A DNA stretch of 53,769 nucleotides from an uncultured Gemmatimonadaceae bacterium (GTDB lineage Bacteria > Gemmatimonadota > Gemmatimonadetes > Gemmatimonadales > Gemmatimonadaceae). The stretch spans positions 1 to 53,769 of the forward strand of contig CBHWBX010000001.1 in assembly GCA_966111935.1 (NCBI GenBank). Reading direction: 5' to 3'. A model generated the notes under the pieces. The model had not been told where the DNA came from. It searched no databases and saw only the letters and a list, made by a program, of their open reading frames with translations. Below are positions 51,506-53,769 of the stretch, piece after piece. Position 1 is the stretch's first letter; each line of letters begins with the position of its first letter. A program made the position numbers and the translations under genes.

Positions 51506-51535
51506 AGTGCATATAAGATGTATCTTATCCACCAT
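51506..51535. other. phage-phage junction (attP-like); putative dif/cer-like site
   Basis: AGTGCATATAA-GATGTATC-TTATCCACCAT. Differs from the host version only in the left arm. Confidence 0.3.
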
Positions 51536-51594
51536 CGCGACACCAACATGAGTCATCTCTGATTGGTGTTCTGTCATAACCCCTGTCGCGAGCA

Positions 51595-51918
51595 TCACGC
51601 GGCAACCCCCGTGTTCGGCAGTTTGGCGAATTCCGCGTCGCAGTGGCGACAGCGGCCCAGCGTCTGGATCAGCTTCGGCGAGAGCGCGACGCGACGGATC
51701 GCGGGCGGGATGCGCTCGCCACACAGCGCGCGCTCTTCCTCGTAGACGGCCACGCCGACGCGGTGCACCAGGCTCAGGTCATCGGTGCGGCCGAAGCGGA
51801 CTTCCGACCACGCGACGCTGTGCCCGAGTTCCAGCGGGGCGTCAGCAATCGCCAGCGCGTCCTTGCGGGCGCTTTCTTCGATCTCGCGGAGCGAGTTCCA
51901 GCGTTCGTGCTCTCTCAT
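51595..51918 (-). CDS. hypothetical protein, identical copy of 6853..7176
   Basis: Identical translation at +44,742. Confidence 0.55.
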   Translation of the reverse strand: MREHERWNSLREIEESARKDALAIADAPLELGHSVAWSEVRFGRTDDLSLVHRVGVAVYEEERALCGERIPPAIRRVALSPKLIQTLGRCRHCDAEFAKLPNTGVAA

Positions 51919-52151
51919 TCTTCGTCCCTCACGAGCTGAATCTTCGGGTTCAGCAGCGCTTCACGCGCTGCGGTCCAATCGGTCTGCGCGGTGCGACTCG
52001 CCTCGACAATCGCGCTCACCGCGGTCCTGAGTTGCTTGTCCTGCTCGCACCAGTAGTCCACCAGAGACTGCGCGGCCTGTCGGCCCTCGGGTGCGAGTTG
52101 CTGCTCAATCGCGAAGCGGATCGCGGTCACGATGATGTCCCGCTGCGTCAC
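51915..52151 (-). CDS. hypothetical protein, identical copy of 7173..7409
   Basis: Identical translation at +44,742. Confidence 0.55.
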   Translation of the reverse strand: MTQRDIIVTAIRFAIEQQLAPEGRQAAQSLVDYWCEQDKQLRTAVSAIVEASRTAQTDWTAAREALLNPKIQLVRDEE

Positions 52152-52714
52152 TCGCGCTCGGCCCGCATCAACTCCAAGCGGAGCTGGTGGCTCGTCGCCA
52201 TCGCACGGAGTGTCGTGGCCATCAGGCGTCGGAAGTCCTCCGAATCGGCGTGCTCGACTCCGTTCGCGATCCACCGCAGCGCGTCGGGCGTGTGCCAGAA
52301 TGAGCCGAGAACCGCCATCGTTACCGGATCTGCTTCGGTCGCCGCCTCGCCGGCGTCTCCAGTCCCGTAGTGCAGTTCCTTCGGGGACATGCGGAGCTTG
52401 TCGGCAATGGCGATGATGTCCGATTGGCGCGGCATAAAGGCGCCCTGCCTCCAGCGCGAGACGGTGTTGTACGAAACGCCGACCGCCCGAGCGAGTTCGA
52501 TATTGGACACCTTCTCTCGCTTCATCGCAGCGACCAGCCGCGCACCGAAAGACGGCACCGACGGACTCTTACCGTCCGGCTCCTCGCGCTCTTGCCCTCG
52601 CGGCTCAGCGATTCGATGCGAAGCCGACGAGTGCTCGTCCGCATCTAGAGGCGCCCTCATGGGCGTGGGATTGGTGCCGCCCTTGGTGTATTCGTGCCAG
52701 TGGCGTTCGCTCAT
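52148..52714 (-). CDS. XRE-family regulator, identical copy of 7406..7972
   Basis: Identical translation at +44,742. Confidence 0.8.
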   Translation of the reverse strand: MSERHWHEYTKGGTNPTPMRAPLDADEHSSASHRIAEPRGQEREEPDGKSPSVPSFGARLVAAMKREKVSNIELARAVGVSYNTVSRWRQGAFMPRQSDIIAIADKLRMSPKELHYGTGDAGEAATEADPVTMAVLGSFWHTPDALRWIANGVEHADSEDFRRLMATTLRAMATSHQLRLELMRAERE

Positions 52715-52899
52715 TCGCTCGCCTCCGCAACGCGCAACAGGCGTTGCATCGTCGCGCGCTCGTTCGACTGCTCGCGGTGCGCGTTCGTGATGTGAAGAAC
52801 CACCGCGACGAGATTGGCGATCGCCGCAGGCCAGTAGCCCCGCGACGCGCACGCGCCTGCCACCGCCGCGTTGACTGCGACTCCAATGCAGTACCACAT
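52711..52899 (-). CDS. small hydrophobic protein, identical copy of 7969..8157
   Basis: Identical translation at +44,742. Confidence 0.5.
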   Translation of the reverse strand: MWYCIGVAVNAAVAGACASRGYWPAAIANLVAVVLHITNAHREQSNERATMQRLLRVAEASE

Positions 52900-52905
52900 G
52901 GCTAT

Positions 52906-53289
52906 TCACTTGCCTCCGCGGTGGGCGGGGTGGAGCGAGCGGCGTCGGCGCGATGATCCTCGACGGCCTTCGCGGCGATCTTGAAGGCCGAGTTCTCGTC
53001 CTTCCCGTCGAAGCGCGAATGCGGCGCTATAGACTTCGAGGATCTGACCGATGACCGTTTCGCGATCCGGCATCTCGTCCTCTCGGGACTCGACCGACGA
53101 GAGGGGAGCGGGCTGATGAGCGACGCGAAGCGCGGCGAGCACGCTGCGAATGTGCGTCGCGGTCACGTCGCAGTGCCGGATCGCCATGATGAGCGATTCA
53201 CCGTTTGCGTCGCGCCATTTCAGCATTTTCTCGAGCGCGAGCACGGCGCCGCCGACTTCGCGCGGCGTCAGTTCGGTTGTATCGCTCAC
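52906..53289 (-). CDS. hypothetical protein, identical copy of 8164..8547
   Basis: Identical translation at +44,742. Confidence 0.5.
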
Positions 53290-53507
53290 TGGAAAGTCCC
53301 GACGCGGAATTGCGCCGTCTGGAGGGTGGGATGTTGCGCGACGAGCCTTTCCCATTCGCGCGTCTCGATCACGATCACTTCACGCACGGTCGCGCCCATG
53401 TTGCCTAGGACCGGCGAGCCAGCGCGACGAAACGGGCAGTGCGCCGCCCAGATCGTGATCGGTTCATCGCGTCCGTCGCCCTGCGGGGCGGGAGAGGGAG
53501 TGGTCAT
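53286..53507 (-). CDS. hypothetical protein, identical copy of 8544..8765
   Basis: Identical translation at +44,742. Confidence 0.5.
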
Positions 53508-53769
53508 GCGGCGTTCGCCTCGCGACCCACCGCGCACATCCGCTGCACGAGATCGACGGCGGACGACTGCAACTGCTCGACGGTCGGGCGCATCTTCGCC
53601 CCCGCCGCAGCCCTCGCCGCAGCCCACGCCGCATCCCTCGCCGCAGCCCACGCCGCATCCCCCGCCGCATCCCACGCCGCAGCCCACGCCGCAGCCCACG
53701 CCGCAGCCCACGCCGCATCCCTCGCCGCAGCCCACGCCGCAGCCCTCGCCGCAGCCCTCGCCGCAGCCC
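53504..53769 (-). CDS. AAW-repeat protein, 3' part of the second copy (5' end outside the window)
   Basis: Identical to 8762..9027. The window ends inside the 12-bp repeat tract. Confidence 0.65.

Follow-up and report, generated by a model that had tools for sequence, protein, structure and literature searches.

A tailed prophage without a recognisable integrase at the putative dif site of a Gemmatimonadaceae bacterium

The window analysed here, a 53,769-nt stretch of DNA from an uncultured Gemmatimonadaceae bacterium (contig CBHWBX010000001.1), carries a tailed phage next to host genes and then begins to read the same phage a second time, which raises the question of how the phage entered the chromosome and why it is joined to itself head to tail. 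We consider it likely, judging from the sequence, that the window holds a 44.7-kb temperate tailed phage, with no recognisable integrase, that sits in the dif site of its Gemmatimonadaceae host and integrates by means of the recombinases of its host, XerC and XerD, which would make it one of the integrative mobile elements that exploit Xer (IMEX). Three of the features expected of an IMEX were found together: insertion at dif, a dif-like phage attachment site (attP), and no self-encoded recombinase in our scans of open reading frames (ORFs).

The repeat, the two junctions and the chromosomal site

Positions 51512-53769 are the same as 6770-9027 at 2258 of 2258 positions, the offset being 44,742 bp throughout. 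The first-pass annotation had reported this repeat, and the ORFs it listed do recur in both copies. An exact repeat this long cannot have originated by chance. Leftward, the two copies already differ at the first base (G at 6769, A at 51511), and over the 20-200 nt beyond it their identity is 25-35%, the level of random sequence. On the right the repeat had been described as running into the window end, which is also the contig end; the annotation advised inspecting what follows position 53769, where the parent record ends and holds nothing further. Because the window is the entire contig, the length of the repeat marks the point at which assembly stopped, not a biological boundary. Exact look-ups of three window proteins, aimed at the sequence past 53769, found none of them on record.

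The stop falls in a tandem tract of 12-bp units, as the annotation had it. With the boundaries defined by Tandem Repeats Finder (TRF), the second copy of the tract starts at 53598, and the final ~170 nt of the window lie inside it. The tract is coding and contributes about 20 four-residue units of the form (A-A-A-W/R / D-A-A-W)n to a 257-aa ORF (8762-9535, minus strand), whose protein matches only PHROGs of unknown function (3416, 8332); it is possibly a contingency or copy-number-variable locus. The longest exact repeat inside the tract is 43 bp, so a break of the assembly graph at this point needs either a small k or copy-number heterogeneity.

The spacing of the repeat had been equated with one full phage-sized unit, and that unit is a 44,742-bp tailed phage (Table 1). 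An assembly wrap-around, which had also been put forward, is excluded in its plain form, a circular contig joined end to end: the left copy starts at 6770, behind 6,769 bp of host DNA with host genes.

The host-phage junction had been placed at 6769/6770, which is right to within the 12 bp common to both partners, TATAAGATGTAT (6770-6781), and the crossover at attL, as read from the two sites, is within these 12 bp. The phage-phage junction had been located at 51511/51512, and an attP-type site does lie there. The sequence common to both partners is limited to TATAA-GATGTA-T, and they differ in the outer XerC arm. Xer recombinases cut at the borders of the central region (PMC6744903). With host-phage identity of just 12 bp, site-specific rather than homologous recombination is indicated. 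The 17-mer AGTNCNTATAAGATGTA is present only at the two junctions, with 0 occurrences expected in shuffles. The phage site has the same central region as the host, GATGTA, and a degenerate XerD arm (TCTTATCCACC, against TTATGTAAACT in the host); by this layout we class it as a TLCphi-type, 'left-armed' dif mimic, in which an XerC arm and GATGTA are followed by a degenerate XerD arm. Two ORFs that span the junctions (51305-51724 and 6466-6807) were rejected as genes: their translations are Arg-rich junk, and the junctions and attP are thus intergenic.

The uninterrupted form of the host site is present in three Gemmatimonadaceae metagenome-assembled genomes (MAGs; L001-L003), which were retrieved with the TPR_21 protein of the host flank (59-63% amino acid identity). 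Positions 1-6565 of the window are syntenic with these genomes at 70-79% nucleotide identity. About 100-270 bp past the TPR_21 gene, all three carry an uninterrupted 28-mer, AGT(T/A)CGTATAA GATGTA TTATGTAAACT, one form of which is AGTTCGTATAA-GATGTA-TTATGTAAACT; the intergenic sequence around it has otherwise diverged. Homology between the window and L002 (blastn) crosses 6769/6770 and ends at 6781, where the window, having read GTAGTACGTATAA GATGTA T, turns into phage DNA (CTTATCCACC...). In layout the 28-mer is a canonical dif, with two 11-bp arms around a 6-bp centre. For Gemmatimonas aurantiaca T-27, Kono et al. (2011) predicted the dif site AATGCGTATAA TACATG TTATGTAAACT (PMC3025954, supplementary file 2), and the 28-mer agrees with it at 11/11 positions of the XerD arm and 9/11 positions of the XerC arm. 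Based on sequence, conservation and uniqueness, we assign the putative attB to the host chromosomal dif. No complete dif is present in the window, so the functional site would have to be at attR, past the end of the contig. The tRNA-Arg gene of the host flank was rejected as the attachment site: it is intact, lies ~920 bp from the junction and is present in the uninfected L001-L003, and no integrase was found.

Integration without a recognised recombinase

We scanned a total of ~240 ORFs in all six frames at a threshold of E<=0.01, comprising ~60 likely genes (Pfam and/or PHROGs), 150 more six-frame stop-to-stop ORFs of >=117 aa (Pfam) and 33 small predicted genes (Pfam). Within the limits of hidden Markov model (HMM) sensitivity, this set yielded no integrase, tyrosine or serine recombinase, resolvase, DDE transposase or excisionase, and no HUH signal (Pfam, PHROGs). 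A Mu-like transposable phage was also rejected, given that there is no transposase, that the unit starts with TA and not with the TG...CA pattern, and that the target is a specific conserved site.

An arrangement of this kind is known from TLCphi of Vibrio cholerae, whose attP resembles dif in the XerC arm and the central region and diverges strongly from it in the XerD arm (PMC6744903, PMC5357621). The window phage and TLCphi share the lack of a recognised integrase, the attP architecture, a phage gene on the XerD side of attP and, by our model, an integration that leaves one crippled and one functional site. TLCphi differs in being a ~5-kb filamentous satellite of a gammaproteobacterial host that needs XafT (DUF3653), whereas here we find a 44.7-kb tailed double-stranded DNA (dsDNA) phage; of the two marks of TLC-type integration, the central region matching dif next to a degenerate XerD arm is present, and an XafT-like DUF3653 factor gave no hit in the ORFs scanned against Pfam.

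The dif-type double jelly-roll (tailless) and CTX-type inovirus prophages of Vibrio are dsDNA or single-stranded DNA (ssDNA) phages with dif-like attP sites of three kinds, full-length, left-armed (17-bp) and right-armed; they restore dif and often occur as tandem arrays (PMC12715192). These Vibrio prophages are non-tailed, smaller than 16 kb and equipped with rstR/xafT terminal genes, whereas the window phage has a capsid-portal-terminase-tail module and an unrelated gene adjacent to attP. The gonococcal genetic island (GGI, 57 kb) and EludIMEX-1 (29 kb) are large elements at dif that depend on Xer, as the window phage would; in difGGI the degenerate XerD arm prevents excision by FtsK, and the GGI is without XafT. 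Both differ in being non-phage elements that lack virion and lysis genes. Bacteroidetes microvirus-related proviruses and PhiCjT23 are reported cases, outside Proteobacteria, of phage integration by host XerCD at dif (PMC3091885, PMC9719478); they are small ssDNA non-tailed viruses.

Temperate tailed phages that encode an integrase share the temperate features of the window phage, repressor-type helix-turn-helix (HTH) proteins and an O-antigen acyltransferase moron, and phiM5 and the 'Manatee Spring' podoviruses share its head-portal-terminase module. These temperate tailed phages use their own integrase and a tRNA or other attB, whereas here attB is dif and no integrase was found. We know of no phiM5-like phage that integrates at dif. 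The IMEX examples returned by our full-text literature searches are only inoviruses, tailless double jelly-roll phages, microvirus proviruses, PhiCjT23, the GGI and EludIMEX-type islands, and a recent paper sets IMEX arrays against 'Int-encoding tailed phages' (PMC12715192).

We propose the following course of events. The injected phage genome would circularise, and host XerC and XerD would bring attP and dif together in a synapse, with strand exchange at the edges of GATGTA. The resulting attL would be a crippled hybrid whose degenerate arm would shield the prophage from FtsK-XerCD excision, as in difGGI and TLCphi, and attR, beyond the contig, would be a working dif made of the phage XerC arm and the host XerD arm, CACCACGTAAGTGCATATAA GATGTA TTATGTAAACT. 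This regenerated dif could take a second copy, giving a head-to-tail array with a joint the same as attP, as in the IMEX arrays of Vibrio. With dif regenerated at attR, a head-to-tail joint would be expected at this locus, and the model supplies a mechanistic reason for it. Excised circles, replication concatemers and permuted virion DNA would produce the same joint, and the 2,258-bp repeat would reflect a contig that passed the joint and re-read the phage until it stopped in the 12-bp tract.

Xer hijacking has so far been seen as an economy of tiny non-tailed phages and a few islands, mostly in Proteobacteria. If a 44.7-kb tailed phage does the same in Gemmatimonadota, viromics pipelines could no longer take a tailed phage with no integrase to be non-temperate, the programs that call prophage boundaries would need to check dif, and dif would be a hotspot for large prophages or arrays in poorly studied soil phyla. 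It would also leave to be explained how a phage capable of lytic growth regulates its excision from a site under FtsK-XerCD surveillance, and would offer a candidate new Xer-activating protein family together with an attP/dif pair that can be tested in vitro.

Weighing the evidence and the alternatives

Several points weigh against integration of this phage through host XerCD. We infer Xer dependence from sequence logic, and host xerC and xerD are absent from the contig. XafT/DUF3653, the sole known activator of TLC-type sites, had no Pfam match in the ORF scans. A recombinase of wholly unknown fold would be beyond the reach of HMMs, and the phage has family-less ORFs, such as those of 373 aa (42043-43164) and 280 aa (15786-16628). 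Neither attR nor a regenerated dif is on the contig, which leaves just one hybrid site in view where two are expected. GC skew across the 10-kb flanks of the motif in L001-L003 shows no clear switch, and the dif assignment therefore rests on the match to a published dif and on conservation. The related contigs with attP are short or partly readable, and the integrase-less state is shown for this genome only. Finally, full-text literature searches, which have incomplete coverage, returned no tailed-phage IMEX and no IMEX of any kind in Gemmatimonadota, which lowers the prior. In the public collections searched we found no attR contig, and the exact junction patterns and the host dif pattern had zero matches in IMG/VR.

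For the joint at 51511/51512, tandem and circular or concatemeric forms predict the same junction sequence, and the contig holds attL, one full unit, the attP-type joint and 2,258 bp beyond it. Both forms had been among the readings of the first-pass annotation, which had passed over the dif site, the dif-like attP and the lack of a recognisable integrase. We put at about even the chance that one integrated copy was joined by the assembler to co-assembled circular, concatemeric or permuted virion DNA. The phage carries headful-type terminase genes (its own terS, and in the relative L010 a terS that matches Sf6_terminase), from which permuted virion DNA containing the joint is predicted. Its relatives were recovered from other metagenomes solely in the attP form, and a contig that ends within a tandem tract while reading the phage a second time is what a graph walk typically gives on returning to an edge already used. 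On the other hand, spontaneous induction usually yields few attP reads relative to attR, in which case the assembler would normally exit into the host, and no sequence feature demands a free form. A true tandem array, with at least two prophages head to tail at dif and a contig that breaks 2.3 kb into copy 2, is a serious possibility that falls somewhat short of even. The regenerated dif invites a second integration whose joint would match 51506-51533, and IMEX arrays occur in 12.6% of Vibrio genomes, with two units commonest (PMC12715192). In addition, the assembler took the joint over attR, which needs comparable support, and a dimer gives 1:1. Set against an array are the mere 1.05 copies on the contig with no attR, a second pass that agrees with the first at 100% and stops within a repeat tract, the outcome expected of a re-used assembly graph edge, and related contigs from other samples that all read through the core as attP with zero host junctions. 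Only a small share is left for other origins of the joint. Free or replicating forms of this phage lineage are probably common.

Other explanations concern the integration itself. The phage could use an unrecognised recombinase of its own at dif, with host XerCD in a non-catalytic role, and many phage ORFs have no family while some tailless Vibrio prophages at dif carry integrase genes (PMC11630473). We regard this as unlikely, since the six-frame scans gave no recombinase, transposase or HUH signal, attP copies exactly the XerC-bound part of dif and the cleavage-bounded central region, and the attP arm co-varies with the host dif arms over the lineage (AGTTCG in the related contig L088, AGTGCA here). 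That the assembly falsely joined a host contig and a circular phage contig through a short word common to both, with the repeat as a wrap-around overlap, is very improbable: the 12-bp word is far under the usual k-mer or overlap lengths of assemblers, and it consists of the XerC inner arm and centre of the host dif, in the right orientation, meeting a conserved dif mimic. In favour of such an artefact, the DNA probably comes from a metagenome assembly: its closest genomes are MAGs, the contig ends in a repeat, and it had no counterpart in the public collections searched. The annotation had also suggested a single homologous crossover leaving a long duplicated segment at both ends, in keeping with the long direct repeat that flanks a phage-sized unit. 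We reject this reading as very improbable. The partners share only 12 bp, the left copy directly abuts the host dif arm, and the 2.3-kb segment is absent at the site in L001-L003; moreover, the duplicated segment is phage DNA beside attP, from the phage early region, and its continuity with the P side is native in the related contig L089.

Related phages, attachment-site surroundings and gene content

In the window phage, attP sits between a gene for a 107-aa protein and one for a 129-aa protein (Table 1). The 107-aa protein has three invariant Cys (LCGE...CxxC) and no Pfam or PHROG family, and an AlphaFold model of its family (6-sequence alignment) reached a mean predicted local distance difference test (pLDDT) score of 59, too weak to use. 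By position, the protein is a candidate Xer accessory or activation factor. Its five homologues, all metagenomic, are 47-60% identical, and each contig with a homologue carries, ~100 bp downstream of the gene, a dif-like 17-mer whose orientation is the same in all. The 17-bp mimic is present in seven related contigs (six distinct sequences) from other metagenomes. When the related intergenic regions are aligned, no block is as well conserved as the 17-mer; its right-hand neighbours, the XerD-side arms, are degenerate. A further contig, L097 (IMG/VR, 54 kb, IMGVR_UViG_3300036900_000217), was found separately by a DNA pattern from the conserved block; it has the mimic 76 nt from its start and no direct terminal repeat. 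Conservation across relatives makes the dif mimic a trait of the lineage rather than a chance feature of a single contig. The mimic in L089 is followed by a homologue of the 129-aa P-side gene of the window (34% identity), so the P'-core-P order at 51511/51512 is the native arrangement of the phage. A search of metagenome contigs with the 129-aa protein for attR returned four distant relatives, with no dif-like site in any. In L088 and L090 the 107-aa homologue has a TROVE-domain (Ro60-like) gene directly upstream (5036-6349 and 183-1496, respectively).

More speculatively, these contigs may belong to a soil podovirus-like lineage of Gemmatimonadota phages without integrase that lysogenises by XerCD and the 17-bp left-armed mimic, with the 107-aa protein as a new, non-DUF3653 factor for Xer activation or directionality and with dif arrays that could yield headful genomes without excision, comparable to CTXphi rolling-circle production; taken as a whole, we hold this picture to be doubtful.

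Two other IMG/VR relatives, L005 and L010 (capsid 71% amino acid identity), have a complete dif-like site, ACTGCGTATAA TATACA TTATGTAAACC, right after terS (position 698-726). It agrees with the arm consensus at 18/18 positions, and five mononucleotide shuffles of 856 kb gave 4 hits in total at <=3 mismatches. The site is either attP at another position or a dif-module-like cassette. In the same two contigs, a 3.9-kb insert that is not in the window phage lies between the dif-like site and terL and contains a 182-aa ORF, a 554-aa TIG/IPT-domain ORF and a 399-aa ORF.

Around the attachment sites we observed further sequence features. GTGTCGC-type boxes flank the attP mimic in all related phages, a perfect 12-bp inverted repeat (GTTGGTGTCGCG / CGCGACACCAAC) straddles attL at 6742-6753 / 6794-6805, and, measured against shuffles, the host DNA on the left side of dif has weak local similarity to the phage P arms (z up to 5.4) in the window and in L001 and L002. 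Such features may be remnants of past integrations or shared sites for accessory proteins. In L001-L003, a conserved non-coding hairpin block, GGGGAAA..CTGTGGAGAAC...TTCTCCACA, lies ~20-70 nt to the right of dif, a place that in the genome of the window falls past the contig end.

Table 1. Positions of features in the window, and dif-like sites of related phage contigs
Feature	Position	Strand	Remarks
Host (Gemmatimonadaceae) flank	1..6763	+	Pfam, tRNA prediction, synteny
tRNA-Arg(CCT)	5771-5846		Within host flank
TPR_21 (YfgM-like) gene	5888-6565		Within host flank
attL, hybrid dif	6764-6791	+	XerC arm AGTACGTATAA 6764-6774 (host), GATGTA 6775-6780, degenerate phage arm TCTTATCCACC 6781-6791
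Complete phage unit, 44,742 bp	6770..51511	mostly -	PHROGs and Pfam scans
Conserved 107-aa gene	6853-7176 (second copy 51595-51918)	-	Ends ~60 bp from degenerate arm of attP
HTH regulators (Cro/CI-type, repressor-type), two	12789-13439; 7406-8167	+; -	
12-bp tandem tract	8856-9098	-	Plus-strand consensus GCCCACGCCGCA; TRF: 20.2 copies, 90% matches
Gp157	10151-10678		
O-acyltransferase (O-antigen acyltransferase moron)	14076-15317	+	
Endolysin	16842-17345		
Virion and tail-spike genes	17855-31559		
Major capsid	31916-32881		phrog_1328, 5e-109
Scaffold	32947-34005		
Portal	34317-36578		phrog_1216, 3e-120
terL	37015-38436		phrog_2, 1e-36
terS	39110-39763		PHROG small-terminase match
Methyltransferase	44150-44965		
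HNH	45297-46031		
DnaB-like	47064-48191		
DnaD-like	48140-48943		
DUF5131	49671-50417		
129-aa gene, function unassigned	50919-51308	-	First on P side of attP; starts minus-strand early operon reading away from attP
attP-type phage-phage junction	51506-51533	+	XerC-like arm AGTGCATATAA 51506-51516, GATGTA 51517-51522, degenerate arm TCTTATCCACC 51523-51533
Second pass through phage attP-proximal (P') segment	51512..53769	-	Same as 6770-9027; contig end cuts it within 12-bp tract
L088-L091 site			AGTTCGTATAA GATGTA TATGATCCATC
L092 site			AGGGCGTATAA GATGTA ...
L093 site			AGTGCCGATAA GCTGTA GGACGTAAACC
L094 site			AGTGCATATAA GATGTA CGACGTAAACC
L095 site			AGTGCGTATAA GATGTA TATTGCCATCA
L096 site			AGTGCATATAA GATGTA TATCTATCCCC

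By Pfam, the host flank encodes the 3' part of gpsA, surE, pcm, a phosphoribosyltransferase, an SDF symporter and an NHL/SGL-repeat protein. The SDF symporter and NHL/SGL-repeat genes (window 3170-5770) are missing from L001-L003, in which the phosphoribosyltransferase region runs almost straight into tRNA-Arg, a host indel near the terminus region.

By its predicted gene content, the unit is a tailed phage (Caudoviricetes), with large terminase, portal, major capsid and tail proteins all present. Its head module is, by sequence similarity, T7/phiM5-like: in tblastn, the best cultured match of the portal was Sinorhizobium phage phiM5 (40%), and portal identities to phiM5 and uncultured podoviruses ('Manatee Spring') were 40-41%. 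At the nucleotide level, megablast of both phage halves against 50,697 phage records gave no match, and the phage HTH protein had no relative among the genome contigs.

A tRNA-like gene at 11533-11607 (minus strand) scores 42 bits with the Rfam tRNA model, above the gathering threshold, and ARAGORN reported an abnormal anticodon loop ('gc') with the type not assigned. Dense 42-bp (14-residue) periodicity runs over the adjacent virion-region ORFs 21304-21954 and 21968-22642 (window 21300-22650, minus strand), and these 42-bp repeats are found again at the end of L004 (20018-20413), a related IMG/VR contig. Gene-start regions are duplicated at 41953-42230, as direct repeats of 54 nt (exact) and 71 nt (90%) spaced 110-160 bp apart, and a 38-nt exact repeat (44108-44145 / 45243-45280) brackets the methyltransferase gene beside two HNH endonuclease genes. 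From their layout, the duplicated gene starts and the repeat flanking the methyltransferase look like cassette shuffling. Among 33 small or family-less phage ORFs, one strongly matched hexapeptide-repeat transferases (Hexapep, 1e-22) and another the Lar restriction-alleviation family at 5e-11.

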